Notes: generated by a model not told the origin, from the letters alone. Shown: positions 34,076 to 59,140, numbered from the whole stretch's first letter. The stretch is 60,039 nt of DNA, filler included, from an uncultured virus (IMG/VR IMGVR_UViG_2502082094_000001) (8 parts of one record of this genome joined end to end with filler, not necessarily neighbours in it); one strand, 5' to 3'. Numbers and translations: made by a program.

Positions 34076-34118
34076 AGCTCGCCTTTGGAGTCGAACCAAA
34101 GAAATACCCTTGCGAGTT
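34076..34118 (-). ncRNA. Minimal tRNA-like element
   Basis: ACTCGC-AAGGGTATTT-CTTTGG-TTCGACT-CCAAAG-GCGAGC-T; fills most of the intergenic gap. Confidence 0.75.
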
Positions 34119-34548
34119 AGAACTTTATTGGTTCCAAACTTGTGTCATGCTGGCAGTTGTTAGACAAGTGACGTTTTACATCATCATCAGAGTCAAGATC
34201 ATATTTTTCTGCTAGTTCAGATAAGCTCATCCCATTTTTAAACTTTCGCTTCATCCAGCCACATTGAGAGTAAGTTATCTCTCCCACATGGTCGTGCTTG
34301 CAGTCATACTCTATGTGCTTTTCAATTTCCGAGACTGAGTATATACCAAAGAGATCATATATCTCCATGAGTTCCATTCCTCTGTGGTCTAGCTCTCTGA
34401 GCAAGGAACACATATCGTAGTTCACTTGCTTAGATGGTTCGTTGTTTAATATACTTAAGATTCTATTCACCAACCTAATCCTGTCTGCTTTTCTTCTGTA
34501 ATATGGCTCCAGTTTTGATGAGTTCACGGTATGCTCTTGTTGAGCCAT
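34117..34548 (-). CDS. Tandem HTH-like DNA-binding protein
   Basis: Two repeats of C..(L/M)...GM.L.E....V..H....C.H. Confidence 0.55.
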   Translation of the reverse strand: MAQQEHTVNSSKLEPYYRRKADRIRLVNRILSILNNEPSKQVNYDMCSLLRELDHRGMELMEIYDLFGIYSVSEIEKHIEYDCKHDHVGEITYSQCGWMKRKFKNGMSLSELAEKYDLDSDDDVKRHLSNNCQHDTSLEPIKF

Positions 34549-34549
34549 C

Positions 34550-35370
34550 TTAGGCTCCAGTTTCTAGTCTGGGTGCGATTATATACACTACTTGAGCCTC
34601 ACCAGCCTCGTCTAGTGTTATGTCAAACCTTACTGGGTTATCTTCTTTTACGTGGATTGTTACTGCCTCTCCTTCTGTGAATATTGTTTTTATGTCTTTT
34701 AGGTAGTCAATGCTTATGTTCGTTACGTGTTCTCCCAGACCATCATCTACTGAAGGGTCATGGTTGTGGAACTCTTTTTTGAAGTTCCCTGCTGTTTTGT
34801 CACTCGTCGATATTCTAAGCGTTTGGTCGTATGTAGCGAACTCAATGCCTCTTCCAGCATTTGAGGTCATCGTGTCAGCACGTTGTACTGTCTTCTTGAG
34901 TTCTGAGCCGCCGACTCTCACTTGGCTTTTGTGAGTAAGAGGGTCAACATTAGGAATTGACGGTACATTGTCTGGATTAACTGTAGGCACCTCAAACTGT
35001 ACATCTTCATCTAACACATCAAGCCGCATTAATCGTGTACCACCAGATCCAACTGGCCATACTACGTTAACGTCGCTTGTGCTTTTGACTGTAGACAAGC
35101 AATCTAGCATTCTGTCGTATTCCACGCCGATCTCTATTTCATCGGCGTTGTTCAGCTCAAGACTATTTAGTGCTTGTCCTTTAATCCTAGCAATACACAT
35201 GCCAACATTTGCTGGGTCATTCACTTTGCTGTACACGTTATTTTCAGTGAACGTTAGTCTACCTTCATCTCTGAACGATGCTACGGCATCAATGAAGGTT
35301 TCTAGGTACGAGGCTGTACAGCCGAACTTTACGTTTTTGTCTTCTATTTCTGTTTCAACTGGGCTATTGA
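34550..35370 (-). CDS. pcn: PCNA sliding clamp, 5' partial
   Basis: LETFIDAVASFRDEGRL, DPANVGM, ISIDYLKDI, NPVRF and YIIAPR motifs typical of archaeal PCNA. Confidence 0.85.
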
Positions 35371-35573
35371 NNNNNNNNNNNNNNNNNNNNNNNNNNNNNN
35401 NNNNNNNNNNNNNNTTAATTAATTAANNNNNNNNNNNNNNNNNNNNNNNNNNNNNNNNNNNNNNNNNNNNCTTGGATCAGTATTGTCGCCGCTAGTGCTG
35501 CTAGTATTATTACCGCTACTGTTTGAGGACTTATTATCATTGTCTGTTTGATCAACGTCTGAGTTGAACTCGT

Positions 35574-36497
35574 CTAGTCCCATTGTGGATGATCGTAGAC
35601 GAAAGCGTCATCATCTCCCTCCCAGTTCTCGTGGGGGTCTACTCCTTCCATACCGGGACACTTGCCTTCTTTGTAATAGGTACAGAATTTCTTACACATG
35701 TACTCTCCTTTCGGGTTCCGTGGCGGAGGTGTCCCTGTATTTACTGCGTTTAGCGTAGTAGTGATGCTATCCACAGCCTGCTCAAACAGATCTTCGTCGA
35801 ACTCTATCCAGTACTCCTCAATGTGGTCATTGCGTTTTGAGTAATACAAAAGACAACCTATGTCTGCTCCGATTATTCCCATATAACCGTTTAACTGCAT
35901 TAGGTTGTCTTCTTTAGGTACTGTTCTAGCGTGTCCGTTCTTACCGTAGTTATAATACTTGAACTCGCTTTTGGTCTTAATGTCTATTACAAATGGATCT
36001 GGAAAGCCTTTTATGCTCTCAGGGTCTAGGTTTATACCTGCTGGTAAAGCATTATTGAGTTGTTCTACAGACTCAAGCCCACGGATTACTATATCCGCGT
36101 GACCGTAGATGTAGTACTCATCGTTAATGTCGTAACTGACTGTTTCTTCAGTGCTTACATGCTCGTGCCCCAGATGTTCTATGAGCATATCTTGGATAAG
36201 CTCGTGGATCGCGTCTCCGTGAGCAAATGTCCAATTTGCGTCATTATCCAAGTCTGGAACATCTAGGTTCTCGTCTAGTTTGTGGACATATTTCAAATAG
36301 TTCTTCCGCTGACAACTATCTGAACTTGACAAGTGACCTCTAGTAGGGTCGGTATTGTGGTATGACCCGCTTTGTTCTTCACTCACTAGCTCAGAAAGCA
36401 ACGAGTGTACTGGACCTTCTCGTGAGTCGTTGGGAGCGTGTACCTTATCTAAGTCATCTAATGGATCCTCGACGATCTCCTTTTCAAACTCAACCAT
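35574..36497 (-). CDS. Cas4-like PD-(D/E)XK exonuclease with Fe-S cysteines
   Basis: CQRK, GDAIHE, GHAD, IDIKT, QLNGY and C...C......C motifs. Confidence 0.8.
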   Translation of the reverse strand: MVEFEKEIVEDPLDDLDKVHAPNDSREGPVHSLLSELVSEEQSGSYHNTDPTRGHLSSSDSCQRKNYLKYVHKLDENLDVPDLDNDANWTFAHGDAIHELIQDMLIEHLGHEHVSTEETVSYDINDEYYIYGHADIVIRGLESVEQLNNALPAGINLDPESIKGFPDPFVIDIKTKSEFKYYNYGKNGHARTVPKEDNLMQLNGYMGIIGADIGCLLYYSKRNDHIEEYWIEFDEDLFEQAVDSITTTLNAVNTGTPPPRNPKGEYMCKKFCTYYKEGKCPGMEGVDPHENWEGDDDAFVYDHPQWD

Positions 36498-36543
36498 GTG
36501 CTTTTATTGTATATGAGCCTTAATATGTTTTTGTATTACTGAT

Positions 36544-37937: not shown

Positions 37938-38137
37938 CCTCAAAGCTCCAGCCAGCTATGACACTGGATACAAACTGGAGCTGAACTAGGACTTTATTCT
38001 TCTAAGTCCCAGTATTTATCCATTACTTCATCTGGAATTTCTTCTCCACAACCCATATCATGCGTTCCAGAGAAGAAGCCGTCACTGTGTATAGGAATAT
38101 CACAGTTAGGGCACTCTATGTCTGTTACTGGCATGTT

Positions 38138-39106: not shown

Positions 39107-39108
39107 TG

Positions 39109-39300: not shown

Positions 39301-39752
39301 ACCATACCCGATTTAACATAAACACCGAACGGTTATAATTGTTATGGTATACACCCATGATAAGTGAGATTAGCTGTGGTAATGGCATGAAGGAGGTGGC
39401 TTACCCTGCGCTGTGGCTGGTTCTTTACTGCTCATAACACATACTCTATTATTTTATTAGTCTAGTACGGATACTTCGCAGTTGAGACATATACTACCTT
39501 CTCTGTTTTCTTTGTGTCCGTACTCGATCTCGTAGCTGGAGAATGGAACGTCATGTAAGATATTCATTCTTCTACAGATTGTACATCTAGAGATGTCTAG
39601 ATCATAAGCCCGCTCTATGTGGGATATACAGTCTTTACAAGCCTGCGACCTTNNNNNNNNNNNNNNNNNNNNNNNNNNNNNNNNNNNNNNNNNNNNTTAA
39701 TTAATTAANNNNNNNNNNNNNNNNNNNNNNNNNNNNNNNNNNNNNNNNNNNN

Positions 39753-40303
39753 TTCTCACCAGTAGAGAAGTCTCCGTTATCTAGTTTTGAATTAACCTCA
39801 CACGAACTTTGTTTAAGACTAACTCCGTTTGAAACCCAGCCAAGCTTTTGATCTAGCCAAAGCATATAATCTCTGTTTGCCATTACCCATTTCATACGAG
39901 GAGACTTTGAACTTCTGTTAAGAAGAGTTGCGTCTCCCATCAAATGACCAATTAAGATTTGCTTTTGTTTATCGGATATATCGTTCTGAGAACATGGACT
40001 TTGAGCCCAATGCTTTGCGATATTTGTGTAGTGAGTATTACAAGACTCACATTCCACTATTCCATCTATTTCAGATGGACTAATACCAGCTTCTATTTGT
40101 GCTTCTGCAATTGAACCATAGTTGTATGTGTATGTTTTAACTGAAGGCGCTTTTTTACTTGATCCTATCAAGTCACGATTTACATCTCCATGTTTTTCAT
40201 GTATATGCCTTATAATTTTCAGTTTTTCTTCTCCGCTCCATCTGTTACCCGTGTTGGATGGGCTATTGGTCTGTTCTGAAGTTTTAAACTCATCAAGACC
40301 CAT
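39753..40303 (-). CDS. LAGLIDADG homing endonuclease, 3' partial
   Basis: QILIGHLMGDA; PSVKTYTYNYGSIAEAQIEAGI repeat; starts MGLDEF. Confidence 0.75.
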
Positions 40304-40719: not shown

Positions 40720-40726
40720 TTTCTTT

Positions 40727-41376: not shown

Positions 41377-42006
41377 TTACCAATCATCAGCCCATCCATC
41401 ATCTTTTACTCCAAGATCTATATTGTCTGATCTTGACTTCACTTGCCGGTCTATGTGTGGGAGCCAGTCTGCATTCTCGTTGAACCACTCTCTGTATTCA
41501 TCTGGCATGGATGTATCGTCAATATCTTCTTCCCACTCGGGATCATCTATTTCTAAACCTTTCTCGTATCTTTTGAGTGCTTCAGCCGGATTATCGCCTC
41601 TAACAATCGCTTTCCACTGTACTACCTCTGGGACAAACTTCTGGACTACGTGGGTTCTGATCCCTTCGTAATCCTTATCCCAATCAGCTACTGGCAGATA
41701 CCATGCTGAAGCATCATTGAAGAATACTGCTACCACTTTATTGAGCCTGTCTCGCTCTTCAGGGAACCAGTATTCTACAACCTTGTTTGTCAACCTGTCG
41801 TTATCTATTATTTCTATGTCTGATGCTATCTTGAAGTCTACGTCGTACAATGGAGGCTCGTGAGGTGTATCATCACTTACAAACGGCTCCTTGTCATAAG
41901 ACGAGCACGCAGACTTGTTTATGTCATGCTCAGACAGCCAGCTAAACGAATCAGTAGATCTGGACTGTGAAGAGTCCGTTTGGTCGGCCTCCATTACTTT
42001 GCTCAT
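41377..42006 (-). CDS. Hypothetical protein
   Basis: Acidic ORF coupled to the 2H phosphoesterase gene. Confidence 0.7.
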   Translation of the reverse strand: MSKVMEADQTDSSQSRSTDSFSWLSEHDINKSACSSYDKEPFVSDDTPHEPPLYDVDFKIASDIEIIDNDRLTNKVVEYWFPEERDRLNKVVAVFFNDASAWYLPVADWDKDYEGIRTHVVQKFVPEVVQWKAIVRGDNPAEALKRYEKGLEIDDPEWEEDIDDTSMPDEYREWFNENADWLPHIDRQVKSRSDNIDLGVKDDGWADDW

Positions 42007-42503
42007 TCTATTGTTCTTATTTTTACTCTGCTTATTTGCGTATCTCTTATACCCACGCCCGACATTATTTCTTCTTGGAGTCGTTTCTTTCTGTCTCTGG
42101 GTATGGTGTCCCAGTAACCTTTAGTCTTGTATAAGGTTATATGCGGGCTATTTGGGTAGTTAATACTTGTTTTAGCATGTCTATCCAGTTGATCTATCAT
42201 GTGTTCTAACTCATCATGGAAGCCATGCTCTATGTCTAGCTGTACTACATACGGCTTATGTATATTCTCGTATACTGAAATTCTGTTTACTTGTATTTTT
42301 CTATTTCTGAATCTGTGGTTGTCTATTATATTCCTAACTCTGTCCATCCTGCCGTCCTTCACCGTGAAGCCCGGCACTAAAGTCATATGGGGTTTCTTTT
42401 TCTTGTAGAACTCTTCTGCTCCTGTAACCACCCAGAGGTAGTCTCTTAGTTGCTTGAGCTGTAGTTCGTTAGTTAATCTCCCCGAGACATATACTCGGTC
42501 CAT
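42003..42503 (-). CDS. 2H phosphoesterase (2'-5' RNA ligase / cyclic phosphodiesterase family)
   Basis: Two HxT motifs: PHMTL and PHITL. Confidence 0.8.
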   Translation of the reverse strand: MDRVYVSGRLTNELQLKQLRDYLWVVTGAEEFYKKKKPHMTLVPGFTVKDGRMDRVRNIIDNHRFRNRKIQVNRISVYENIHKPYVVQLDIEHGFHDELEHMIDQLDRHAKTSINYPNSPHITLYKTKGYWDTIPRDRKKRLQEEIMSGVGIRDTQISRVKIRTIE

Positions 42504-42561: not shown

Positions 42562-43776
42562 CTACCGATCTGAGAAGCTGAATGAGCCGTTTGTGCTGTC
42601 TTTTACAGTGTTACCATCGAAGTACTCAGCTGCGTTTTCGATAGTGCGCTCTCTGTAATGTTGTCCCTCCTCACCCCACTTGCTCATCCCACTAGCCCAC
42701 ATTATGTCTGCTATGACTGATTTATCAAACTCGTGTTTCAGGAGCTTTAGCACAAACGCATACTCAAGTTCTGATCTTGAGTCATATCCATCAGCATCAC
42801 CGTTCCAGTATTGTCTAAATGCGTTGTCCGTCTTAATCAGATGGTTTACTCTCGCCCACGTATCATCGGTTAACTCTGATGGAGTAGTGTCAACAGACTC
42901 CATATCAACACCAGTACAACCATTAGACGTGCTTTCTCCGCTTTGTGTGTCCAACTCGTCTCTGATTTCATCTGGTGTTTTATCAATATCAGACTGAGTT
43001 ATCACCCCTGCGTTTTCTTGGTTAGGTTGGTGGATAATACCACACAGTCTCCCAGTTTGGGACTTAATACCTCGTGTACCCGGTACTTTCATAACCCGAG
43101 CAGGGTCACTAACATCGTCTTGATCGAAGTTAATATGCTCAGGAGCTTGTGATTCTATTATGGTTGTGTACTTGCTATTCATCGCCTTTTGAGTCAAGTA
43201 CTTACCAAGCAGATGTTGCTTGTTGTATAGCATGTCTTCACTACACTCAAAGTCCACATTGAAGTGTAGATGTATGCCATTCTCAGACATTACTACAAGG
43301 GGCCACACTCCATATTGCTCGTTCATGTACTTTACTTCAGCAAGCGCATACTGATAAGCCCACCATACCTCTTCTTTAGTGGACCCACCGTATGACTGCT
43401 TAGCAAGCTCAATGTCAAAGGACAGCTTTTTAATGGTGTCTATGTGTTCTGCTGCCCCACGCCCCGTCCGTGGAGTTTCACTTAGTGTATTAACACCTGC
43501 GTACACATGGTATCTCCACAGATCTGAATGTGTTTCACAGAACTCTCGGAACTCGTTGAAGGTTCTAGCGTGTACCCACTTTTGCTCTCCTGTATTCGCG
43601 TTAGCCTTTTTCTTATTTGGCACAGGGAAAGCACAAGTCTGTACAAAGCCATTTTGGTCGCTATACATCCAGCGATAGAACCGTTCGATAGCATCTTTTG
43701 AGTATGACGGAGCTGACTCCGACTTACTCATTTGCTGTATGAATGTTTGTTTATCAAGCGGGTCTATCATTGTCAC
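42562..43776 (-). CDS. AEP-superfamily primase-polymerase with helical C-terminal domain
   Basis: YAGVN, SFDIE, SENGIHLH, DPARVMKVPGT; DSRSE...KW....Y.ERTI.NA. Confidence 0.85.
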   Translation of the reverse strand: MTMIDPLDKQTFIQQMSKSESAPSYSKDAIERFYRWMYSDQNGFVQTCAFPVPNKKKANANTGEQKWVHARTFNEFREFCETHSDLWRYHVYAGVNTLSETPRTGRGAAEHIDTIKKLSFDIELAKQSYGGSTKEEVWWAYQYALAEVKYMNEQYGVWPLVVMSENGIHLHFNVDFECSEDMLYNKQHLLGKYLTQKAMNSKYTTIIESQAPEHINFDQDDVSDPARVMKVPGTRGIKSQTGRLCGIIHQPNQENAGVITQSDIDKTPDEIRDELDTQSGESTSNGCTGVDMESVDTTPSELTDDTWARVNHLIKTDNAFRQYWNGDADGYDSRSELEYAFVLKLLKHEFDKSVIADIMWASGMSKWGEEGQHYRERTIENAAEYFDGNTVKDSTNGSFSFSDR

Positions 43777-48121: not shown

Positions 48122-48146
48122 TTGCTATCTGACGGCTCATCCGTCA

Positions 48147-48188
48147 AGCCCAGCAGGGGAGTCGAACCCCTGGAGCACCGATCTGGGT
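48147..48188 (-). ncRNA. Minimal tRNA-like element
   Basis: ACCCAG-ATCGGTGCTC-CAGGGG-TTCGACT-CCCCTG-CTGGGC-T, directly after the sipW stop codon and followed by a TGACGG/CCGTCA hairpin. Confidence 0.8.
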
Positions 48189-48189: not shown

Positions 48190-48723
48190 TTACTCTTCTT
48201 CCTCGTTTTGGCTAGCCAGATACAACTGCCACATCCCATCCATCAGCAGGAGTGTAAACGGGAGGACAACTAACGCCATCCACCCAACAGTTGAATCTGC
48301 CATGTTAACTATGTACCCTAGTACTGGTATATGGAATAGTACAATCCCAACTACCTCTGCTCTTACCACTGGCTCAGGGTCTCTCACGTCGTTGTTATCC
48401 CCTTTTGTGATGAAGCGTACACTGTCTGTTATCTCCCCAGTTTTCTTCTCCACCACTCTGTGTGTAGTCGTCTGTCTAATGTCTCTAGCCTGGCTAAAGG
48501 TTATCACGTCACCTTCCTCTATCCGCTCGTCAACCTGACTAGTTGGAACATTATCGACGAACACTACTGAGCCGGTTGGGATTGCTGGTTCCATACTACC
48601 TGATAGCACTATGAACGAGTGGTCTGCTCCTACTATCCACGGGAACGCATGGACCACAAATAGTGCCAGTATACATAGGAGTACTGTGAACCCGAGGACT
48701 TTGATTACTCCTCGGACATTCAC
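48190..48723 (-). CDS. sipW: Signal peptidase I, SipW/Sec11 type
   Basis: VLSGSMEP (Ser), THRV (His), TKGDNN...DP. Confidence 0.9.
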   Translation of the reverse strand: MNVRGVIKVLGFTVLLCILALFVVHAFPWIVGADHSFIVLSGSMEPAIPTGSVVFVDNVPTSQVDERIEEGDVITFSQARDIRQTTTHRVVEKKTGEITDSVRFITKGDNNDVRDPEPVVRAEVVGIVLFHIPVLGYIVNMADSTVGWMALVVLPFTLLLMDGMWQLYLASQNEEEE

Positions 48724-49769: not shown

Positions 49770-49810
49770 TATCTTTATGCGGTAGTCCGCTAGCCTTCCC
49801 CGTATAGGGA

Positions 49811-49853
49811 AGCTCCGCCGAAGAATCGAACTCCGGCCATACCAATCAGAGCT
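49811..49853 (-). ncRNA. Minimal tRNA-like element
   Basis: As 13-55; the allelic change turns a U-A pair into a U-G wobble, so pairing is kept. Confidence 0.75.
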
Positions 49854-49866
49854 GCTTCAACAGCCA

Positions 49867-50424
49867 TCACACTTCGTATTCTCTAAGTCTTATCATTTCC
49901 CCATCTACACTATCTTTAACAGCTCTTAGGAGCTTTTTAAGCACATATGACTCACTTCTATCATTGTGCTCGGCTACCTTTTCTATCCATGTTGCTAATT
50001 CATCATCCACATACACACTCTTTTGCTTTTTCACATCTTCCTTTTCTATATGTTCAAATTCATCAGATATTTCTTGAAGCGCTTGAACCCTAGTTTGGTC
50101 AACGTCTCCAATCTCTATGATCTTGACACAGTCTTCTTTGACGGCTGCCACATCTACTCGAATCAAGTTGCCGTCAAGCTCTACAACATCGACTAGTGCA
50201 TTGATGAAGTCAGTAGGTATTACTGCTTCTACCATCACGTCCCAGCCGTCTCTAGTCAGTGACTTTCCAGCGCTCAGCTTTAGATCAAAATGCTGTTCGC
50301 CTTCATAGCCTACCCTAAACTCATCTTCGTTAAAGATGAAGTCGTAATAGGTATTGACCTCGTTATGCTTTTTGAGCGTGCGCCCGATGCCGAGGCTAGT
50401 CTCTTCAATCATTGGAGTCGTCAT
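49867..50424 (-). CDS. Putative PD-(D/E)XK-like domain fused to RHH-like domain
   Basis: GWDVMVE...RVDV.A......IIEIG; C-terminus homologous to 59-277. Confidence 0.45.
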   Translation of the reverse strand: MTTPMIEETSLGIGRTLKKHNEVNTYYDFIFNEDEFRVGYEGEQHFDLKLSAGKSLTRDGWDVMVEAVIPTDFINALVDVVELDGNLIRVDVAAVKEDCVKIIEIGDVDQTRVQALQEISDEFEHIEKEDVKKQKSVYVDDELATWIEKVAEHNDRSESYVLKKLLRAVKDSVDGEMIRLREYEV

Positions 50425-50755
50425 CTCCGTCCAATTCTTCTTCTATTGCCTCACATCCTCGACGGATTGCTTCAGATGCTAGGCCCGATTTAGTCCCATT
50501 ATACTTATCAGCTAAGTCATCAAGCACTTGTGCCGCTCCGTCATCTATTCTAATCCTTTTCATGTATTTAAGTCCACTCCTTGGCCCCTATATTGGCGAT
50601 ATTCGGGAGTTTTCCCATATATACCCCATGTATTGGACGGGTAATAAATGTAACGAAAAAGCAAACCTAACAGCCACTGGATACTCCATGCTTGTAGTAT
50701 CCTAGTATATTGTCGGTACATTTATGAACCTTGTATGCGTACCTGCTAGCGTAGC

Positions 50756-51165
50756 ATGGAAATACAAGATCTGAAAACACAGCTAGAAAACGAGCTGTTA
50801 GATCAAGAGGATGTAACAGCCGTAGGCATCGGACATGATGAAGATGGCAACGAAGTAGTTGTGATAAACGTAGATTATGGCAAGACTAACAGTGTTGCTA
50901 TTCCTAGTAACATCGACAGTTCAAATGTCGAGATTAGGGAGACTGGTAAGTTCCACGCAGAGGTAGTCCGTGGGCAGCAACCACAGGAGATTGATAGAAA
51001 GGCTAAACACAGGCCAGTACCTATGGGTGTATCTGTAGGACACTTTAACATTACTGCTGGTACTTCTGGCTTCATCGTGACTGATGGGAACTCTGAGTAC
51101 GTCTGCAGCAATAACCACGTATATGCTGACATAAATAATGCTTCTGAAGGAGACAGTATCGTACA
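50756..51165 (+). CDS. Trypsin-like serine protease, partial (allele of 447-1139)
   Basis: Near-identical sequence. Confidence 0.75.
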
Positions 51166-51265
51166 NNNNNNNNNNNNNNNNNNNNNNNNNNNNNNNNNNN
51201 NNNNNNNNNTTAATTAATTAANNNNNNNNNNNNNNNNNNNNNNNNNNNNNNNNNNNNNNNNNNNN

Positions 51266-51581
51266 CGTTGACTTCTGCAGTGGAGTCAGGTGAAGATGAT
51301 GTATCACTACCTCCATCGGATGGATTCATCCATTCTGGAGTATCATTTGACTCGTTTGTCTCATTAGTAGTGTTGTCTACTTCATCACCGCTCTGCCCCA
51401 CGTCGGATGTGTTGTCTCCTGTAACATTATCACCATTCTCTTGCTCAGGTGTTGTATTGTTAGCGGGTGGAGGCTCAGGGTTCTGTACTTCCGGTGAGTC
51501 ATCAATTAATGCTGAAGATATAAATAAGGCGGAAGCACCCACAATCAATGAAAGAAAGAATACTAGCTTCTTATTTCCCAT
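51266..51581 (-). CDS. Secreted/membrane-anchored acidic protein, partial
   Basis: N-terminal signal or TM helix followed by N/T/D-rich linker. Confidence 0.65.
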
Positions 51582-51583
51582 AC

Positions 51584-52609
51584 TTAGCTCGCGCCTGTAT
51601 TGGACGTACTAGTATCTCCGTCTCCTTCACTTGCGGTATTAGACTGCGACGTTTCGTTATTTACCGTAACGTCGAAGGACGTTTCTGAGTGGATGATTGC
51701 TGGATGATCTGAAGCGTTATCCCGTAGAACGTTGTAAGGGATTCCTGCTCCGCCAGCGTAACCATCGAAGGACGGGTAGCCATCCTCTCCGTTCATTACT
51801 ATTGCCGAGTTGCCTTCGTCAATGTCGGAAGCAAGCATCTCCGAACCTTCTGGCATCGCGCGGGTAGCAGCATCAGCTAGTTCTTCTAGCGTGGCCTCAG
51901 AGCCAGGATCGTATCTCCGGTATGGAGCATTGTCGAAGATGTACTCCAACTGGCTACGGTTAGGACGTTGTAGCTCTACCGTGTAGCGAAGCTCCACTTC
52001 GGTAGTGGCACTTTCACCATCTGTTTCTTGGTCAAACGGAGAGGCTGGGTACGGCTTGGTTGAGGCTGCTGCTCCGTAGTACCCTGCGTTTTGCGACGGG
52101 AAGTTATTCTGAAGCGTCAGATCTAGGTTGTTACTGGCTTGACCGGCACTCCCCATCGAAGTACCATCTAAGTATGATTCTTCAGACGCTGGCCCGTAGC
52201 TATTCCAGTCCGCGCCGGGGTAGTCTGGGGCTCCATTAGGATCTGCGATGGATAGGGGACGGCCTAGCCGGGACTCGAAGTTATCAAGCTCCAGCGTACC
52301 TGTAGTACCCATTTGCTCTGGGCTGAGCCACGGGGTAGCCCTGTAGATTGGATACCAGTCTCCACCGGCAACTCGTGCTTCTACGAGCCAGAAGACCTTA
52401 CCAACCGTCTCATCAAAGTTAGCCCAGTTAACGTCGAAGTCTGGACTAATTGTTACTTGAGTAATGTCTCCACGGTCATTAGATACCGTAGCATCATTAC
52501 TTTGGATTGAGAGCCCGGACTGTGCTCCAACTGTTTGAGTAGCTGTGAATGCTCCCGCACTGATTACTCCAAGGGAGCCAACTGCCTTAACGAACGTTCT
52601 TCGTTCCAT
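51584..52609 (-). CDS. Secreted protein with twin-arginine-like signal
   Basis: MERRTFVKAVGSLG...; acidic, more GC-rich codons. Confidence 0.7.
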   Translation of the reverse strand: MERRTFVKAVGSLGVISAGAFTATQTVGAQSGLSIQSNDATVSNDRGDITQVTISPDFDVNWANFDETVGKVFWLVEARVAGGDWYPIYRATPWLSPEQMGTTGTLELDNFESRLGRPLSIADPNGAPDYPGADWNSYGPASEESYLDGTSMGSAGQASNNLDLTLQNNFPSQNAGYYGAAASTKPYPASPFDQETDGESATTEVELRYTVELQRPNRSQLEYIFDNAPYRRYDPGSEATLEELADAATRAMPEGSEMLASDIDEGNSAIVMNGEDGYPSFDGYAGGAGIPYNVLRDNASDHPAIIHSETSFDVTVNNETSQSNTASEGDGDTSTSNTGAS

Positions 52610-52654
52610 GTTTATCACTCAGTAGTCTGCTAGCCAGCGGGCTAAAGCCCGCAA

Positions 52655-52694
52655 TACCTGTCTTAGGAGTCGAACCTAAGTTCTCCAAACAGGC
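52655..52694 (-). ncRNA. Minimal tRNA-like element
   Basis: GCCTGT-TTGGAGAA-CTTAGG-TTCGACT-CCTAAG-ACAGGT-A. Confidence 0.8.
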
Positions 52695-52726
52695 CACATG
52701 TGTAACTAAGCATTACACACGTAAGA

Positions 52727-52801
52727 CGGACGTAAAGGGATTTGAACCCTTGATCTAGTGGTTAGAAGCCACTCGCCTTATCCGGGCTAGGCTATACGTC
52801 C
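52727..52801 (-). tRNA. tRNA-Arg(TCT)
   Basis: Full cloverleaf; anticodon arm AGTGG-CTTCTAA-CCACT; no encoded CCA. Confidence 0.9.
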
Positions 52802-52804
52802 AGA

Positions 52805-52877
52805 TGGGTGAACGAGGATTTGAACCTCGGCTCTCCGCCTTGTAAGGGCGGCGTCTTAACCGCTAGACTACTCACCC
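52805..52877 (-). tRNA. tRNA-Val(TAC)
   Basis: Full cloverleaf; anticodon arm CCGCC-CTTACAA-GGCGG. Confidence 0.9.
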
Positions 52878-53023
52878 TAGGGGAGTGTGGATAGTGGGTA
52901 CACTCGGACCCAGACAATCGTGTGACACTCTGACTACCACTACCAACGGTAGTTCGTGACTAGCCTGACCCAACTTGCCACAGTTGGGTTCTCGATATTT
53001 GTAACGCTCCTCTTGGGGAGCAG

Positions 53024-53096
53024 TGGGCCTGCTCGGATTTGAACCGAGAGTCGACTCGTTATGAGCGAGTTGCCTTGACCGTTTGGCCACAGGCCC
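53024..53096 (-). tRNA. tRNA with CAT anticodon (probably Ile2, otherwise elongator Met)
   Basis: Cloverleaf; ACTCG-CTCATAA-CGAGT; GGGCC acceptor start typical of Ile tRNAs. Confidence 0.8.
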
Positions 53097-53152
53097 AAGA
53101 ATGAGGTTGTTCATAGAACTATTCTTTGATGACGGATAGACGTTCCTTGAAT

Positions 53153-53431
53153 TTACGAGCGCAGTCGCTCGACAAGCTCCTGAAGCGGCTCCTCGTTGTC
53201 GTCCTGCTCCATCTGAGCAACTGCGACGAGGAACTCACCCACGAGGTTGTGTCTGTCAGTACCGAGCTGCTGCTGGATGAAGCGGGCAGCATCGAACTGC
53301 CGCTTGGCTTCCTCCGGGTCATCGAACTCTTTGGAGTCCGGGTGCTCCGGGTTCTCGAACTGGTAGTAGGTCGTTCGCGTCTTGCCGCCACTCGTGCTGT
53401 TGTTGTCTCCGCTGAATGAATCGACGCCCAT
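53153..53431 (-). CDS. Small highly expressed protein starting MGVDSF
   Basis: Strong C-ending codon bias; ACAATG start context. Confidence 0.7.
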   Translation of the reverse strand: MGVDSFSGDNNSTSGGKTRTTYYQFENPEHPDSKEFDDPEEAKRQFDAARFIQQQLGTDRHNLVGEFLVAVAQMEQDDNEEPLQELVERLRS

Positions 53432-53530
53432 TGTTCTAGTTTGAGTTGACCACAGTTGATTTATACAGTAGCTGTGTCTGACCACTGGACTCACTTGTTT
53501 TATAAAAAGGAGCGGTAGTCATACTCCATA

Positions 53531-53602
53531 TAACAGAAGAGGGAATTGAACCCCTGACACTCTGACCAAGTGCTCCTACCCGGTTGACAACCGGCTTCTG
53601 TT
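53531..53602 (-). ncRNA. Non-canonical tRNA-like cloverleaf
   Basis: AACAGAAG/CTTCTGTT closing stem, CCGGTT-GTC-AACCGG, GCACT-TGGTCAG-AGTGT, GGG-TTCAATT-CCC T-arm. Confidence 0.5.
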
Positions 53603-53677
53603 TGTAGAACTTACGAGTTACTTCTTTGATTTGGCACAGGGCTTCATCAATGGAAGCCCATAAGCAGCTCTCGCGCC

Positions 53678-53816
53678 TGGAGTTTTGGCTGAGGGGCAAC
53701 TCAGTAAGTTCTGTACATCTCATTGTTGCCTTGGACTTTGGCCCAAGCTCGCTCCGATACGAGTTCAGAGTCATATTTGGGTCTGGTTTAGCGATCTTTA
53801 GCTCAGCCTGACTCCA
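53678..53816 (-). ncRNA. Candidate ~140-nt multibranch ncRNA
   Basis: Closing helices TGGAGT/ACTCCA and GGCTGAG/CTCAGCC enclose several hairpins. Confidence 0.5.
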
Positions 53817-53817
53817 A

Positions 53818-53863
53818 TGCTCACTCAGGTCTCGAACCTGAAACGGGCCGAATCTACATGAGC
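53818..53863 (-). ncRNA. Minimal tRNA-like element with longer linker
   Basis: GCTCAT-(16 nt containing GG)-TCAGG-TTCGAGA-CCTGA-GTGAGC-A. Confidence 0.6.
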
Positions 53864-53865
53864 TG

Positions 53866-54027
53866 TTAGTCATTGTCTTCGTCCCCACAATGAGCTTGAT
53901 CTTCTTCGTAAGCGTCCATTAGATGGACTAGCGCTTCGTCATTAGTCATGGAGTTACTCTCCGCTTTTATCCTCTTGAACCTCAAGAACTGAGATTGGTT
54001 TAGATCACAGCGGAGATTTTTTGCCAT
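53866..54027 (-). CDS. Small RHH-like protein (not in ORF track)
   Basis: MAKNLRCDLNQSQFLRFKRIKAE...TNDEALVHLMDAYEE...*. Confidence 0.5.
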   Translation of the reverse strand: MAKNLRCDLNQSQFLRFKRIKAESNSMTNDEALVHLMDAYEEDQAHCGDEDND

Positions 54028-54132
54028 ATTGTNNNNNNNNNNNNNNNNNNNNNNNNNNNNNNNNNNNNNNNNNNNNTTAATTAATTAANNNNNNNNNNNN
54101 NNNNNNNNNNNNNNNNNNNNNNNNNNNNNNNN

Positions 54133-54305
54133 TCAGTGTCTGGTTGATCTGTACCTGGATCTGTGCTCACACGTTGAGCATCGCGGTCTACTTCAAACCC
54201 TACAGCTAGTGGCTCTTGCTCATTTGATTCATCATCATCGTCTGTGGATGAATCACTGCTTGAGCTTGATGAGCTACTATCTGTTTGGAAGTCATCTAAT
54301 CCCAT
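54133..54305 (-). CDS. Hypothetical protein starting MGLDDF, partial
   Basis: N-terminal tag followed by a poly-Ser/Asp linker. Confidence 0.7.
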
Positions 54306-54366
54306 GATTGTATTGTGTGCTTGTTTACTGTACTACCCTTAGACTCTGTTTTCATTGTTTCTTTGA

Positions 54367-54408
54367 TGCCCACGCGGAGGAGTCGAACCTCCGCTACTCC
54401 AAGTGGGC
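54367..54408 (-). ncRNA. Minimal tRNA-like element
   Basis: GCCCAC-TTGGAGTA-GCGGAGG-TTCGACT-CCTCCGC-GTGGGC-A (6+7 bp). Confidence 0.8.
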
Positions 54409-54423
54409 GTGTTCCAATCTAGA

Positions 54424-55041
54424 TTACCAGTGTTCTATGTCTGTATGCCCCTTCAACTCAGTATCTACATCGTCACTTTTCCTGAAGCGTTGAGTGTATG
54501 ATTCTCCATGTATAGCTTTCATAGCATGTTCTGTGTCTTTGATAGACCAGTCATCTGTCATGCTATCAGCCATAGCCATCTTGACTACGTGTCTCACTTG
54601 GTGGAATGTGTTTACTACAACCTGAGTATCAGGTCCAACATCACTACCAAATCTGTTCTCTAACTCCGACATACACTCATCTTTCTCTACTTCTCCAGTG
54701 TCCAGCATAATGACTTCTCTTGGGACATTACCCAAAGTCATTTGCTGGGTAGACAAGCAAGATACAATACCTTCTGCGTCACCCAGCGTGTAGCGTGCTG
54801 CTGTATTGTACTCTGAGTCTTTAGTTATAATCGGGAATACAGGTAGTCTGTACTTGATTGAATCACTATTTACGCTTATGTGATCTTCTACAGTGTCTTC
54901 AAATTCACTATACGACTCGTACCCGTATGGGCCTGTGTTGTCTTCTGCTTGTTTTGGATCTTGAGACTCGTTTGAATCGTCTTCATTATTGTCTGACCCG
55001 CTACTACTCAAGTCTTCATCTATAAATTGCTCAAGCCCCAT
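54424..55041 (-). CDS. Hypothetical protein starting MGLEQF; paralog of 59628-60039
   Basis: Shared VSC...LG...E..M.D.G...K.E.M.E.E.R.G block. Confidence 0.7.
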   Translation of the reverse strand: MGLEQFIDEDLSSSGSDNNEDDSNESQDPKQAEDNTGPYGYESYSEFEDTVEDHISVNSDSIKYRLPVFPIITKDSEYNTAARYTLGDAEGIVSCLSTQQMTLGNVPREVIMLDTGEVEKDECMSELENRFGSDVGPDTQVVVNTFHQVRHVVKMAMADSMTDDWSIKDTEHAMKAIHGESYTQRFRKSDDVDTELKGHTDIEHW

Positions 55042-55051
55042 GAATTAACGA

Positions 55052-55351
55052 TTACTCTTCTAGGTAATCCTGGATGAACTCTTCGACGTTCTCACGTAGT
55101 CTTTTTTCCTCATCTGGGTCAAGATCTACGTTGTGCTCATCTGTGTCAAGGATCTCGTTTGCTCTTTGGATGATTGCTTTATCACCGTTCCCGTCAGCAC
55201 ATAGTGCTGCCTCCATAGCCCAGTCAGGGCTACGGGCAATCATTCCAGTCCAGAAAGCCTCGTCAACAGTAACGTTCCCTAGTTGCTTTCGGGTTTTGAT
55301 GGTCGTTTCCTCTTCTTCTTGCTCAGATTGTTGAAATTCTTCTAGTCCCAT
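55052..55351 (-). CDS. Hypothetical protein starting MGLEEF
   Basis: Acidic ORF within the operon. Confidence 0.7.
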   Translation of the reverse strand: MGLEEFQQSEQEEEETTIKTRKQLGNVTVDEAFWTGMIARSPDWAMEAALCADGNGDKAIIQRANEILDTDEHNVDLDPDEEKRLRENVEEFIQDYLEE

Positions 55352-55647
55352 TAGCTTTCAACCTCAAAGTATCCGCTGACTGAACCGCTTCCTTCTACCT
55401 CTTGTTTTACGCGCTTTGCGGCCTCTATTGCTGATGATTTATTGAGACGCTGACTTTCCTTACCGTTATACGTAGCTAGTCTGGAGTCCCAACTGTCTAC
55501 AACATCACCATTATCGAGAAGTCTTACTTTGTACTCCCACCAATTCTTATCATTTACTGTCTCGATTCTGTCACAGACACGGTATACATCAAAGTCTACC
55601 GTGTAGCTATGTTCTGGACTGTCTTTGCTAGTTTGTGTGTTGGGCAT
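55351..55647 (-). CDS. Hypothetical protein
   Basis: Coupled ORF downstream of the hammerhead. Confidence 0.65.
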   Translation of the reverse strand: MPNTQTSKDSPEHSYTVDFDVYRVCDRIETVNDKNWWEYKVRLLDNGDVVDSWDSRLATYNGKESQRLNKSSAIEAAKRVKQEVEGSGSVSGYFEVES

Positions 55648-55655
55648 ATTTTCTT

Positions 55656-55730
55656 CTAACTTTGTTGTTTCGCTTGGACCAGACCCAAGCTCATCAGGTG
55701 GCTAATGTATGCCACGACGTAAATAGTTAG
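55656..55730 (-). ncRNA. Type III hammerhead ribozyme
   Basis: GUC^-GUGGC-AUACAUUA-GCCAC-CUGAUGA-GCUUGG-GUCUGGU-CCAAGC-GAAAC; distal stem III CUAACU/AGUUAG. Confidence 0.8.
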
Positions 55731-55746
55731 GGGTATTGCTACATGG

Positions 55747-56124
55747 TTAGCGGTTTAGCTCAGTCCATGCCTCCACTAAGATCTTTAGTAAATCTTCACT
55801 TAGTACACACGTATTAAGCCAATGTTCATCTTCCTGTGGGAACTCAAACGGTGTACTTACCGTGTACTGATTTTCCTCTTCAATCCACGCATGTATTTGC
55901 TCTATTGAGTCAATGTCACGAGCAACTATTAAACTATACCATACCTCCGCTCCTCCTACGATGCCGCTTGTTACTTCTCTCATACTACCTGCATTTTCTC
56001 CATAGGCAAAGTAGCAGCTAGGGCAAGCGATGAACGTATACCACGTACCGCTACCTTTCTTAATGAAGCAGTTCATCTCACCGCACCGTGGGCAAGGCCC
56101 TCCAAGCCCTTCTGTTCTTGACAT
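55747..56124 (-). CDS. Zn-finger protein
   Basis: CPRCG...CPSC. Confidence 0.7.
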   Translation of the reverse strand: MSRTEGLGGPCPRCGEMNCFIKKGSGTWYTFIACPSCYFAYGENAGSMREVTSGIVGGAEVWYSLIVARDIDSIEQIHAWIEEENQYTVSTPFEFPQEDEHWLNTCVLSEDLLKILVEAWTELNR

Positions 56125-56126
56125 TG

Positions 56127-56573
56127 TTAACTAGTAGTTTCTGTTTTAAGGTCTATTCTCACGCCATTCTCGAACTCTTTACGTTCTCCATTAACCTCTA
56201 CATACCACTGTTTATCTAGTTGAAACACATCAACTGTTGATGGGAGTATCTTGTTCAGGGTTCTCTTTGTGAGTTTGGTTTTGTGATCTGCGTGTCTAAG
56301 CTTGAACTCTGTGTTGTTATACCGAATTGCTATAAGATTTTGGTGTAGATAGAAGTGTCTGTTACTGTTGTAGTCTATAACTGTTATTCTGTACGCTCCC
56401 TTATCTGTAATATTGATACAACCACACTCGTAATCTCTGCCTGGTTGGTGATATGACTCTTCACGTACTACTGCTCCTTTGTCGTATAGAGTTTCAAAGT
56501 CTTTTGGGTTGTAATCACTCATCTCTAAGCGGTAGGCCGCTACCCTAAGCCTGATTGGAGAATTGAACTCCAA
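56127..56573 (-). CDS. Hypothetical viral protein
   Basis: FYLHQNLIA...TKLTKRTLN...VFQLDKQWYV, a phage-like pattern. Confidence 0.6.
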   Translation of the reverse strand: MEFNSPIRLRVAAYRLEMSDYNPKDFETLYDKGAVVREESYHQPGRDYECGCINITDKGAYRITVIDYNSNRHFYLHQNLIAIRYNNTEFKLRHADHKTKLTKRTLNKILPSTVDVFQLDKQWYVEVNGERKEFENGVRIDLKTETTS

Positions 56574-56664
56574 ACTAAGACCACTTCAAGGCTGATAAAT
56601 CAAGAATATATAGGTCATACGTGTAGGTTTAAATAGCAACTATAGCTTTTAGGTATATTACTTT

Positions 56665-56946
56665 TCATTCTATATCGTCTTCCATATTACGTATTGTGTC
56701 AACTAATAACTCATATTCTTGACTATATGTATGCTGGCTATCAATGTTCCGTGTTCCAGTACCGTAATCAATACATACAATATCTCCATCAAGCTTGGCA
56801 AAATTTCCTCTGTTAAAGTCAACTAGATCTATTTTTGCATCCATTATTATGGACGTTACACATATTACCCACTCAGCGTTTGTGATATTTGTATCTGCTT
56901 TTGGCATGGTAAGCCACATATTTTCATCTCCATGATGCTTGACTGG
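56665..56946 (-). CDS. Protein-kinase-like fragment, 5' partial
   Basis: WLTMP hinge, DFNRGNF catalytic loop, CIDYG (DFG-like). Confidence 0.55.
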   Translation of the reverse strand, partial: PVKHHGDENMWLTMPKADTNITNAEWVICVTSIIMDAKIDLVDFNRGNFAKLDGDIVCIDYGTGTRNIDSQHTYSQEYELLVDTIRNMEDDIE

Positions 56947-57252
56947 NNNNNNNNNNNNNNNNNNNNGCTGTTGCTTTATTGTTATTGTTACTGCCCACGG
57001 CGGGGTCTGTGCGCCTTCCGTTGCTGCGAACATTAATCTCTACCTTTAACTCTACCTTATCTAGTCTCTTACAGCAGTCCCGTGGAGATACCTCTTTACT
57101 CTAGAGTGTAGTAGAGTATAAGTAGTACCTTTATAACCCTCTATATTAATACGCGCACGCGACACGCGCCCGCACGCACGTAGTAGGGTTTTGCTCGTAT
57201 TCTAAGCAATAGTACTGACATTAATTGTTCGCAGAACTTCACTTTTTGATGC

Positions 57253-57456
57253 TTATTTATGATCTGCTCTGCTCCTTGCCTGCTTAGCCATTTCTATGTA
57301 TACGTTTGCTGATGACTTTTCAATGAACTCTGCTAGCTCGTCATAGCCCATATCTTCAGCTATTTGCTTGACACCTCGCATGTCAAACATATTTATCATG
57401 CCGCTTCTTCTTATGGCTTCTTGCTGATGAAGCACTTCTTCTGGATATTCACTCAT
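57253..57456 (-). CDS. DUF5049-like small protein
   Basis: EAIRRSGMINMFD. Confidence 0.6.
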   Translation of the reverse strand: MSEYPEEVLHQQEAIRRSGMINMFDMRGVKQIAEDMGYDELAEFIEKSSANVYIEMAKQARSRADHK

Positions 57457-57465
57457 TGCTTACAA

Positions 57466-58426
57466 TGATTCTGTGTACTTAGCGCACGTTGCTCAGACCT
57501 TTCCGATGACATCTGTTGAGTCTTTATCAAGTGCTGTTCTGAGTATGGTTTTGAACTCTACTCTGCTAAGCACTTTCTGGAACTGTTCACTGGATAATTC
57601 GTACTTGTATAGTGGACGTATGCTGTCTAGCTCGATGTTGAACTCCGCATTATTACTTATTATGTCTGATTCCTCGATTCCATTTTTTTGCCTATCAAGT
57701 GTTTCTACACCCTGAAAGCACCCCTTTTTTATCGAGTGCTCATACACTCTTGATGTTAAGCTTGAACCTTCCTCTACTTGCCCTACGTACCAGAACACTC
57801 TTCCGTCCGATGATCTAGTACATTTTAGGACATATACGAAGGCATCAGCGTTTTTATCGTAATCTGGATGTGTCTTTACCAGATTTGACCAGTACTTGTA
57901 GCTTTTACCGCTGTTATTGTTTCTTCTTTCGTTTGCGTTTCTGTACGCTATTTGCTTGTCTGTTACTTCTATTCCTAGACTTATGAGCCCGTTTACAAAT
58001 GAGCCATCTCCATACTTCTTTGAGACTGTACCAGCGGAAAAGGTACAGTGCTCATCTACTTTTGACTTTGTCACTGGCTTATCCAGTTTTGCTAGCTCAT
58101 TTGAGGCTTCGTTTTTACTAGGAGCACTTCTCATGTTTTGCTTTAGTGAGAGATGCTCCTTTACGCCATTAAATGTCTTGTCCGTGTACTCCTTTATGGT
58201 TGTATGGTGTATACCGTTGTTTTCTCTTCTTAGATCTGCTAATGTGAAGCTTTCACCGCACTTTTCTGCTGTTTCAAGAAACATTCTGTATATTTCTGCT
58301 TCAGTTAATTTGTTATCCTCGGCTTCTCTACTTTGATCTCCTGATGAGAATTGTTCTAATCCCATGCGTCAATATACCAAACCTATATAAATAAACTTTT
58401 TGTTTTCACTAGTTTATTGATTCTGT
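57466..58426 (-). mobile_element. Homing endonuclease cassette flanked by TGATTCTGT direct repeats
   Basis: Absent from the allele at ~3460; 9-bp repeat at 57466-57474 and 58418-58426. Confidence 0.8.
57493..58365 (-). CDS. GIY-YIG endonuclease with N-terminal endonuclease-associated repeats
   Basis: FVYVL...WYVGQ...SRVYEH; starts MGLEQF. Confidence 0.75.
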   Translation of the reverse strand: MGLEQFSSGDQSREAEDNKLTEAEIYRMFLETAEKCGESFTLADLRRENNGIHHTTIKEYTDKTFNGVKEHLSLKQNMRSAPSKNEASNELAKLDKPVTKSKVDEHCTFSAGTVSKKYGDGSFVNGLISLGIEVTDKQIAYRNANERRNNNSGKSYKYWSNLVKTHPDYDKNADAFVYVLKCTRSSDGRVFWYVGQVEEGSSLTSRVYEHSIKKGCFQGVETLDRQKNGIEESDIISNNAEFNIELDSIRPLYKYELSSEQFQKVLSRVEFKTILRTALDKDSTDVIGKV

Positions 58427-58861
58427 ATTTTTACAGTTGGGGAACCAAGAACACCCGTAAAATTCTTCACCATTCGAGTTCTCTCGGATCACCATAGTAT
58501 TGCCACACTCTTCGCACTTTTTGACGTTACCTTGTTGCTTAGCGAGCTTGTTGATCTTCTTTTTCAAGTTCTTTTTCCAAGTTTGTATTCTGTTAGTACG
58601 TCTTTCTTTGAGTACTGGACGGCCACTATCCGTATGTAGCACTACTGTTCTGATAGCGTCTGAACCTCTACTACGTGCTTCTCCAGTGCGCTTATCAAGC
58701 GATGAATAGACACGTAGCGTGAATGTGTCGTCTTTTGACTTAGCCTCGTATATCAGTTCTCCTGACCACGGGTAGTCTTTTCTTTCAAAGTCCACGTCGG
58801 TTTCTGAAAGAGCCTGTTCAAACTCTTCTTGGATAATGTCTGAGTATTTTCGGTTACTCAT
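58409..58861 (-). CDS. Protein with topoisomerase-type Zn ribbon
   Basis: CEECG...FYGCSWFPNC. Confidence 0.7.
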   Translation of the reverse strand: MSNRKYSDIIQEEFEQALSETDVDFERKDYPWSGELIYEAKSKDDTFTLRVYSSLDKRTGEARSRGSDAIRTVVLHTDSGRPVLKERRTNRIQTWKKNLKKKINKLAKQQGNVKKCEECGNTMVIRENSNGEEFYGCSWFPNCKNTESIN

Positions 58862-59067
58862 AGTATAGTACGGTGTACTTGATCTTCACTGTCTTCTGTT
58901 TTGTTTTTTAGCTCATCTAACGTACCGTGTACTTCTAAGCGATTCTTGTTGTGTAATCCGATATTTTCTGAATTTACTACCTCGTATTTTGCTTCTACCT
59001 CGTCTCCAGCCATTACACAGTACAAACTACGTTTACTACCGTCAAGCGTCAAGACGTATACTGGCAT
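58858..59067 (-). CDS. Hypothetical protein
   Basis: Coupled ORF. Confidence 0.6.
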   Translation of the reverse strand: MPVYVLTLDGSKRSLYCVMAGDEVEAKYEVVNSENIGLHNKNRLEVHGTLDELKNKTEDSEDQVHRTIL

Positions 59068-59099
59068 TGTTTTGTGCTAGTTTTATGTCGTCTCGGACA

Positions 59100-59140
59100 A
59101 GCCCCGTTAAGGAGTCGAACCTTAAAAATCCAAGCGGGGT
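59100..59140 (-). ncRNA. Minimal tRNA-like element
   Basis: ACCCCG-CTTGGATTT-TTAAGG-TTCGACT-CCTTAA-CGGGGC-T. Confidence 0.8.

Follow-up and report, generated by a model that had tools for sequence, protein, structure and literature searches.

The DNA considered here is a stretch of 60,039 nucleotides (nt) from an uncultured virus (IMG/VR IMGVR_UViG_2502082094_000001), hereafter called the window. The contigs concerned encode pieces of a family B DNA polymerase, LAGLIDADG endonucleases, a dCTP deaminase, a sliding-clamp-like protein, a Cas4-like exonuclease, a primase-helicase-like protein, a LigT-like phosphoesterase and three tRNAs. Between these genes lie eight copies of a short element that resembles the top half of a tRNA and that we call a mini-tRNA. 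All eight are supported by a covariance model and all are on the minus strand, which is the coding strand (Table 1). Each copy is approximately 40 nt long (38–46 nt) and comprises a 5–6-bp acceptor-like stem and a 6-bp T stem with a UUCGAYU loop, joined by a linker that contains GG.

Copies in the window and their covariation

How well is this set of copies supported? The original prediction had reported seven tRNA-like loci and one allele, all on the coding strand, and three results bear this out. First, GTTCGANTC occurs seven times in the window, every time on the minus strand, where 1.45 occurrences would be expected; none of 100 shuffles reached seven. Second, a structure descriptor that combined a heptamer resembling a T loop with a T stem and, next to this, an acceptor-like stem, and that did not require GG, recovered the seven loci and the allele, together with a further site at 56550–56590; its matches at 53279 and 28195 are probably due to chance. 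Third, a covariance model (R1) built from only three copies, those at 34077 and 48148 among them, found five further copies in the window with expectation (E) values of 3e-8 to 7e-4, and also matched three copies in parts of contig C2 of the archaeal genome G001 that are absent from the window.

The model-supported set is composed of six of the seven loci, the allele at 14–54 and the additional copy at 56549–56591. The seventh locus, placed at 53818 in the original prediction and at 53819–53863 here, is probably a plain hairpin: it has an 8-bp palindromic fold, and the model does not match it. The allele exists because the first 3.9 kb of the window (1–3896) are strain-variant duplicates, with 94–99% identity, of segments within 49799–58717; the bin seems to combine two related virus populations. 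A single A/G difference separates the copy at 14–54 from 49812–49852, changing a U-A pair into U·G.

Other details of the predicted architecture also held. GG is present in each linker, and the three terminal A-C mismatches are found in the copies at 34077, 48148 and 59101. Most copies had been said to begin no more than about 15 nt from the stop codon that precedes them, and the distances read from the sequence agree (about 7, 1, 13, 2, 17 and 5 nt), the copy at 52656 lying instead 32 nt after tRNA-Arg. Seven of the 16 linker-free spacers of at least 45 nt between 30.7 and 60 kb contain a supported copy.

The stems differ between loci, and the pairing is kept. In alignments fitted to the model, which inflates such figures, 94.7% of the stem cells were paired among the 37 distinct copies from all sources, compared with 57.5% after shuffling and 38–52% when the partner columns were slid, and changes on both sides occurred at 11 of the 12 pairs. 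The 11 distinct copies of this virus gave 96.2%, compared with 63.1% (shuffled) and 31–55% (slid), again with 11 of 12 pairs doubly changed. Independent support comes from R1, because this three-seed model already finds the remaining copies. In the consensus, a nearly invariant UUCGA(C/U/G)U loop is closed by a G-C pair and followed outwards by a 6-bp T stem and a 5–6-bp acceptor stem; the linker of about 8–10 nt reads roughly A-N-(U/C)-G-G. Position 1 faces a non-pairing base in 17 of the 37 copies, mostly an A opposite a C in the alignment.

The window itself is a pseudomolecule and not one molecule. Draft contigs have been joined at approximately 12 places by N20 gaps and N44-TTAATTAATTAA-N44 linkers (a '111-nt repeat with 8-nt period' returned by a repeat finder corresponds to these linkers), and the mini-tRNA copies are spread over at least five separate contigs. 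Because the window is stitched together in this way, neither operon continuity nor 'polycistronic operons' can be assumed. The nearest comparison genome, G001 (1.2 Mb, 82% complete, 42% GC), contains the same blocks in another order on its contig C2. The family B polymerase (PolB) of the window is closest to those of haloarchaeal tailed viruses, with 26–28% identity, and 'virus of a hypersaline archaeon' is a fair reading of this DNA. Single-protein scans of IMG/VR with a 344-aa and a 441-aa window protein found no close relatives, and a megablast search of 20 kb of the window against a phage collection gave no match. The sequencing runs that matched window 54133–60039 were all of DNA and were labelled hypersaline lake metagenome; no RNA run was found among them.

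Two gene regions of the window are recorded here for completeness. The putatively split polymerase gene has its PolB domain and its exonuclease part on different contigs with a linker between them; a LAGLIDADG open reading frame (ORF) is directly upstream of the exonuclease part, and a second such ORF is at 39.7 kb. The gene for the LigT-like 2H phosphoesterase adjoins one for a 404-aa protein without a family match. By analogy with RtcB in the HF1-group viruses, these two proteins may form an RNA-repair pair.

Table 1. Positions of mini-tRNA copies and of other features in the window and in related sequences. R1 and R2 are covariance models; bp, base pairs; UTR, untranslated region.
Sequence	Feature	Position	Strand	Remarks
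Window	Mini-tRNA copy	14..54	-	R1 E 3.2e-8; strain-variant duplicate of 49812-49852, 98% identity
Window	Mini-tRNA copy	34077..34117	-	A.C + 5-bp acceptor stem, 10-nt GG linker, 6-bp T stem, TTCGACT loop; R1 seed; no trailing hairpin, start codon 10 nt downstream
Window	Mini-tRNA copy	48148..48188	-	Begins 1 nt past upstream stop codon; R1 seed
Window	Hairpin directly 3' of copy 48148	48129..48147	-	7 bp, -8.9 kcal/mol; in 5' UTR of next gene
Window	Mini-tRNA copy	49811..49853	-	6-7 bp acceptor stem, 6-7 bp T stem, TTCGATT loop; R1 E 9.8e-8; then CUUCCC/GGGAAG hairpin, ~49796-49811
Window	AAGACTTAGA	49870-49885	-	Upstream of copy 49811
Window	Mini-tRNA copy	52656..52694	-	32 nt downstream of tRNA-Arg; R1 E 7.4e-4; then 6-bp GC hairpin, 52637-52652
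Window	Mini-tRNA copy	54368..54408	-	6-bp acceptor stem, 7-bp T stem; R1 E 8.5e-5; folding z -3.47; start codon 12 nt downstream
Window	Weaker mini-tRNA copy	56549..56591	-	TTCAATT loop; R1 E 0.064; then GGUAG/CUACC hairpin
Window	Mini-tRNA copy	59101..59140	-	A.C + 5-bp acceptor stem, 6-bp T stem; 5 nt past upstream stop codon; R1 E 1.4e-7
Window	Doubtful locus	53819..53863	-	Fits loose descriptor; no R1 match at E<=10, no later match at E<=0.01
HF2 and HF1	Strong copies	2905-2945 and 4375-4414		2 each; R2
HRTV-14	Strong copies			2; R2
HRTV-27	Strong copies			4; R2
HRTV-2	Strong copies			2; R2
HFTV1 (MG550112)	Strong copy	35057-35097		R2 E 5e-9; plus one weak match
G069, contig C6	Copy in related small archaeal genome	L039 9992-10032	-	
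G070, contig C16	Copy in related small archaeal genome	L040 1181-1221	-	
HRTV-27	ARAGORN tRNA-Ala(CGC) call	48509-48597 (L184 3010-3098)	-	89 nt; overlaps annotated gp89
Window	Short hairpins trailing tRNA-Arg and tRNA-Met	52695-52726, 53000-53022	-	
Window	PolB-domain / LAGLIDADG region	28737-30632, 30694-31431, 31428-32366, 39701-40303	-	
Window	LigT-like 2H phosphoesterase	42003-42503	-	
Window	404-aa protein	42562-43776	-	No family match
Window	N20 gaps	1140-1159, 2633-2652, 3897-3916, 5809-5828, 8216-8235		
Window	N44-TTAATTAATTAA-N44 linkers	12570-12669, 16566-16668, 30646-30745, 35322-35470, 39653-39752, 51166-51265, 54033-54132		

Copies in other viruses and in archaeal genomes

The check put forward with the original prediction was a covariance model built from the copies and run on haloviruses, and this search found the family in six cultured viruses (Table 1). 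It was performed with model R2; because the copy at 56549–56591 was in the training set of R2, the later E value of that copy is circular. Annotation was checked for 12 of the 13 strong cultured-virus copies (that at 61594 of HRTV-2 was left out), and all 12 were on the coding strand in gaps without annotated RNA; one of them overlaps an annotated coding sequence (CDS) start by 44 nt. In HFTV1, the gp62 stop codon marks the beginning of the copy, and 13 nt separate its end from the start of the PCNA gene; the copy nearly fills the gp62–gp63 spacer of 54 nt. HVTV-1, HCTV-1, phiH1 and phiCh1 gave no model match. Several other matches were rejected: two full-length matches in HGTV-1 are parts of real class II tRNAs and four others cover only the T arm and lie inside the tRNA cluster, the match in HATV-2 covers only the T-arm part of the model, and a weak match at 54827 in HRTV-14 is unconvincing.

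A pattern scan of IMG/VR, from which 80 loci were fetched, yielded eight full-length model matches at the pattern site and three more off the site, one of which is inside a real tRNA-Glu. When five of the parent contigs were searched whole, they contained 3, 3, 3, 1 and 1 copies, on one strand per contig; the three contigs with three copies each (G071–G073) include copies outside the search pattern, with E values of approximately 3e-8. One of the five resembles Halorubrum virus HRTV-2. The mini-tRNAs are a fold with covarying stems, placed on the coding strand in the spacers between genes and conserved across three virus families.

In G001, all 10 matches are within 41 kb, at 34–75 kb of contig C2, and none was found in the other ~1.09 Mb at E<=1; the string GGTTCGAYTCC occurs only twice in this genome outside the virus-like contig. 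Matches at E<=0.01 were obtained in four of the 70 genomes of the class to which G001 belongs and in none of its 28 high-quality genomes. The four are G001 itself, G003 (two copies on a 4-kb contig), and G069 and G070 (one copy each). The copies in G069 and G070 occupy a corresponding spot, with an unknown gene of 333–355 aa on one side; on the other, 3–5 nt after the element, comes the start codon of a gene that encodes a signal-peptide protein. A thymidylate synthase gene is near the element in G069 and a Hel308-like helicase gene in G070. These two copies possibly represent a chromosomal use of the same element.

Relation to tRNAs and to known tRNA-like elements

The copies are not ordinary tRNAs. 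The Rfam tRNA model (RF00005) at E<=10 matched only the three real tRNAs of the window and no mini-tRNA copy, and ARAGORN likewise called only these three in the window; of 21 related loci scanned with it, 20 gave no tRNA call where the copies lie. A canonical tRNA has a cloverleaf with D and anticodon arms; the copies, at 38–46 nt, have neither arm, as had been predicted, and are covarying mimics of the tRNA top half. Moreover, the three tRNAs of the window all carry UUCAAAU loops, compared with UUCGAYU in the copies, which argues that the copies are not recent derivatives of the co-resident tRNAs.

Two observations concern tRNA genes or calls near the elements. In HRTV-27, the 3′ end of the tRNA-Ala(CGC) called by ARAGORN (Table 1) is a mini-tRNA copy; either the call is false or the gene is a long and unusual one of tRNA-like type. 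In the window, the real tRNA-Arg and tRNA-Met are also trailed by short hairpins; trailer hairpins are a general habit of this virus.

Which known elements do the mini-tRNAs resemble? The closest in kind is the t-element upstream of the 5S rRNA of Haloferax volcanii, a tRNA-like fold in a haloarchaeal non-tRNA transcript, which is reported to be cut by tRNase Z, and also by RNase P in an icrRNA cassette, defining the ends of the neighbouring RNAs (PMC4326828). The mini-tRNAs have the fold expected of t-elements in general, in which a T-arm-like hairpin, with its T-loop motif, continues an acceptor-like stem, here over 12 pairs in total. They are on the sense strand in spacers; the one mapped HF2 transcript end lies inside an element. 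In contrast to the H. volcanii t-element, the viral elements are multi-copy, are located between protein genes and are approximately 40 nt long. The primer itele1 (PMC4326828), used as a search pattern, gave two unrelated Bacteroidales matches in genome contigs; an 18-nt part of it gave 29 unrelated matches in metagenome contigs, which were mostly coding-looking and had no T loop after them. No element of the mini-tRNA type was found near the 5S gene of G001.

A second parallel is provided by the t-elements of plant mitochondria and by mitochondrial tRNA punctuation, in which acceptor/T-arm-like structures or tRNAs are positioned between coding regions and RNase P and RNase Z form the 5′ and 3′ ends of mRNAs, with cleavage reported (PMC1920247, PMC3790967). 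Those elements belong to an organellar lineage, neither viral nor archaeal, and the viral copies differ further in keeping the GG linker and the UUCGAYU loop, usually with a hairpin thereafter, and their cleavage is predicted.

Minihelices built from an acceptor stem and a T arm serve as model substrates for three enzymes, RNase P, tRNase Z and the CCA-adding enzyme. The mini-tRNAs share with such minihelices a coaxial stack of ~12 bp capped by a T loop; unlike these substrates, they are natural and genome-encoded, and their conserved GG linker could re-form the contact at the elbow.

The partial tRNAs that serve as attP sites in viruses of the HF1/HF2 group are also tRNA-derived non-coding sequences, and they occur in the same virus genomes. 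According to PMC8707807 and PMC7230728, such an attP site is single-copy, adjoins an integrase gene and is a 57–72-nt 3′ part of a tRNA matching a host tRNA. The mini-tRNAs, in contrast, are multi-copy (eight in the window and 10 in contig C2 of G001), are far from an integrase gene, are without an anticodon arm and have their own 5′ acceptor strand, and we do not identify them as attP sites. The two papers discuss other tRNA-like sequences, namely the attP sites, a deleted tRNA-Arg and an aberrant tRNA-Pro. No family in Rfam 15 matches the mini-tRNA elements, and our full-text literature searches found no description of them in archaeal viruses, in agreement with the original prediction.

Possible functions of the mini-tRNAs

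What might these elements do? The enzymes that process tRNA ends read the acceptor/T stack, the T loop and the elbow contact. Because the features kept in the mini-tRNAs are those that these enzymes read, we favor cleavage, and consider, with a probability of approximately one half, that the elements are an uncatalogued RNA family of haloarchaeal viruses that is recognized and cut by the tRNA end-processing enzymes of the host. Under this reading, the ~40-nt element would mimic the acceptor/T-arm stack of a tRNA, its GG linker probably replacing D-loop G18–G19 at the elbow. The elements would be transcribed within multigene viral RNAs, and host tRNase Z would cut at the 3′ edge and RNase P possibly at the 5′ edge, separating the upstream message from a downstream message that would begin with the adjacent hairpin or, failing that, with a short Shine-Dalgarno-like leader.

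Several lines of evidence are consistent with this proposal. G001 encodes a tRNase Z (322 bits, above the curated cut-off). In vivo, the RNase P and tRNase Z of Haloferax cut t-elements placed on either side of a CRISPR RNA (crRNA), according to PMC4326828 and PMC4946936. The HF2 transcripts reach 35 kb and the species on Northern blots are mostly 1–2.5 kb, for which the authors suggest processing (PMC8707807). In the same paper, F1 is a short transcript from the first annotated CDS and F2 a long transcript, both defined by reverse transcription PCR; given this description, F1 and F2 would meet in the HF2 spacer that contains copy 1. For HFTV1, Table S2 of PMC12542753 lists 'TSS gp62' and 'TSS gp63' (TSS, transcription start site) with near-identical early profiles and without coordinates. 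These published transcript data on relatives are only suggestive.

Other observations weigh against cleavage. On the structural side, single-sequence folding gave the proposed fold in only four of the eight window loci, with unexceptional z-scores (-0.01 to -3.5), and the support for the fold is therefore comparative rather than thermodynamic; in addition, the stack is often 5 + 6 bp plus an A·C mismatch and not a clean 12 bp (17 of 37 copies). The specificity of the model is also imperfect, given its matches to parts of genuine class II tRNAs (HGTV-1) and to a tRNA-Glu, and the coincidence of one HRTV-27 copy with an odd 89-nt 'tRNA-Ala' call. As for the enzymes, RNase P RNA was detected only below threshold in the kin of G001 and was not found in G001, which is 82% complete. 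Finally, no transcript end is mapped to the edge of an element. The only mapped end that can be placed, the HF2 5′ end T-4384, was obtained by primer extension and read by the authors as a transcription start (PMC8707807, section 3.5). It coincides with the leading G of the GG in the linker, 9 nt into HF2 copy 2, and a start at this site would omit the 5′ strand of the acceptor stem.

The surroundings of the elements bear on the alternatives. In 24 of the 37 copies, no more than 5 nt separate the 3′ edge from a hairpin with a folding energy of at most -6 kcal/mol, and the copies that are without one have a Shine-Dalgarno-like GAGG/GGTGA and a start codon within ~12 nt. The arrangement of hairpin and start codon is kept between HF2 and HRTV-14; their orthologous hairpins differ by paired substitutions, and their mini-tRNA stems are identical. 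An intrinsic or oligo-T terminator was rejected: in the 37 stretches of 32 nt downstream, five or more consecutive T never occur next to the element or its hairpin, and most of these stretches lead directly to a start codon.

Might the element instead remain on the mRNA? As an uncleaved, cis-acting leader or trailer, it would shield the neighboring end from exonucleases or tune the translation of the gene 3–47 nt downstream, for example by engaging factors that bind the tRNA elbow. Each copy is in the 5′ UTR of the downstream gene, and both the Shine-Dalgarno-like sequences of the hairpin-less copies and the arrangement common to HF2 and HRTV-14 fit such a role. A generic stabilizing hairpin, however, needs no invariant UUCGAYU loop, GG linker or ~12-bp stack, which are the features that tRNA enzymes read, and we regard this alternative as unlikely, albeit the strongest of those considered.

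It is less probable still that the copies mark transcription starts, with a promoter in the end of the upstream gene firing into the element, which would be the first sequence transcribed, like a small tRNA gene fused to an mRNA. The 5′ end T-4384 inside HF2 copy 2 has a promoter-like motif upstream, described as the 'alpha' motif (PMC8707807), and AAGACTTAGA, upstream of window copy 49811, is identical to 10 nt of that motif. An AAAGACT-like motif precedes the two HF2 copies, the two HRTV-14 copies and window copy 49811 at a distance of 22–35 nt, and the 'TSS gp63' listed for HFTV1 (PMC12542753) points in the same direction. Nevertheless, no common AT-rich peak was present at a fixed upstream distance across the 37 copies, the upstream CDS reaches the first base of the element in several of them, and a start in the linker would lose the 5′ strand, whose pairing covaries strongly.

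Equally improbable, in our view, is a role of the mini-tRNAs, whether excised or embedded, as decoys that soak up host proteins with an affinity for tRNA, for example modification enzymes, the CCA-adding enzyme or defence nucleases directed at tRNA. Many copies are present per genome, in early-gene regions, and these viruses carry RNA-repair genes, namely that for the LigT-like 2H phosphoesterase in the window and RtcB in the HF1 group (PMC7230728). Without an anticodon loop, however, the elements cannot decoy anticodon nucleases, and a decoy would not require fixed placement on the coding strand between genes.

That the copies are viral tRNA genes in decay, or what is left of tRNA 3′ halves of the attP type, without a function of their own, is very unlikely: although haloviruses carry partial tRNAs as attP sites and a tRNA-Arg with a 28-nt internal deletion (PMC8707807, PMC7230728), and although one copy adjoins the tRNA cluster of the window, a single genome can contain 10 or more copies, all built alike and with compensatory changes, a scan of 51 window proteins detected no integrase, the copies keep a 5′ strand that an attP remnant would be without, and the loop difference from the co-resident tRNAs, the scarcity of GGTTCGAYTCC elsewhere in G001 and the cross-family conservation all argue against such an origin.

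Returning to cleavage by host enzymes, we regard the mini-tRNAs as putative signals of the t-element kind: the family is real and widespread, and its function in processing is predicted from the sequences. A far-reaching version of this proposal, which we consider unlikely, is that haloarchaeal tailed viruses of at least three families, together with the virus-like contigs binned with a small-genome archaeon, use tRNA punctuation, in which the mini-tRNAs would be released from long viral transcripts by the tRNase Z and RNase P of the host to leave hairpin-capped or near-leaderless mRNAs, and CCA-tailed RNAs of ~41 nt would accumulate and titrate host tRNA-binding factors in early infection.

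Neither Rfam nor GenBank annotation includes the family, and in GenBank mis-called gene starts sometimes cover it. The HF2 authors suspected transcript processing and, in the Discussion of PMC8707807, named no signal for it; the mini-tRNAs are a concrete and conserved candidate. Because HF1, HF2 and HFTV1 are grown in the laboratory and RNA-seq data for HFTV1 are public, the idea is directly testable. If the elements are cut as proposed, they would also provide a 40-nt processing cassette for archaeal genetics.

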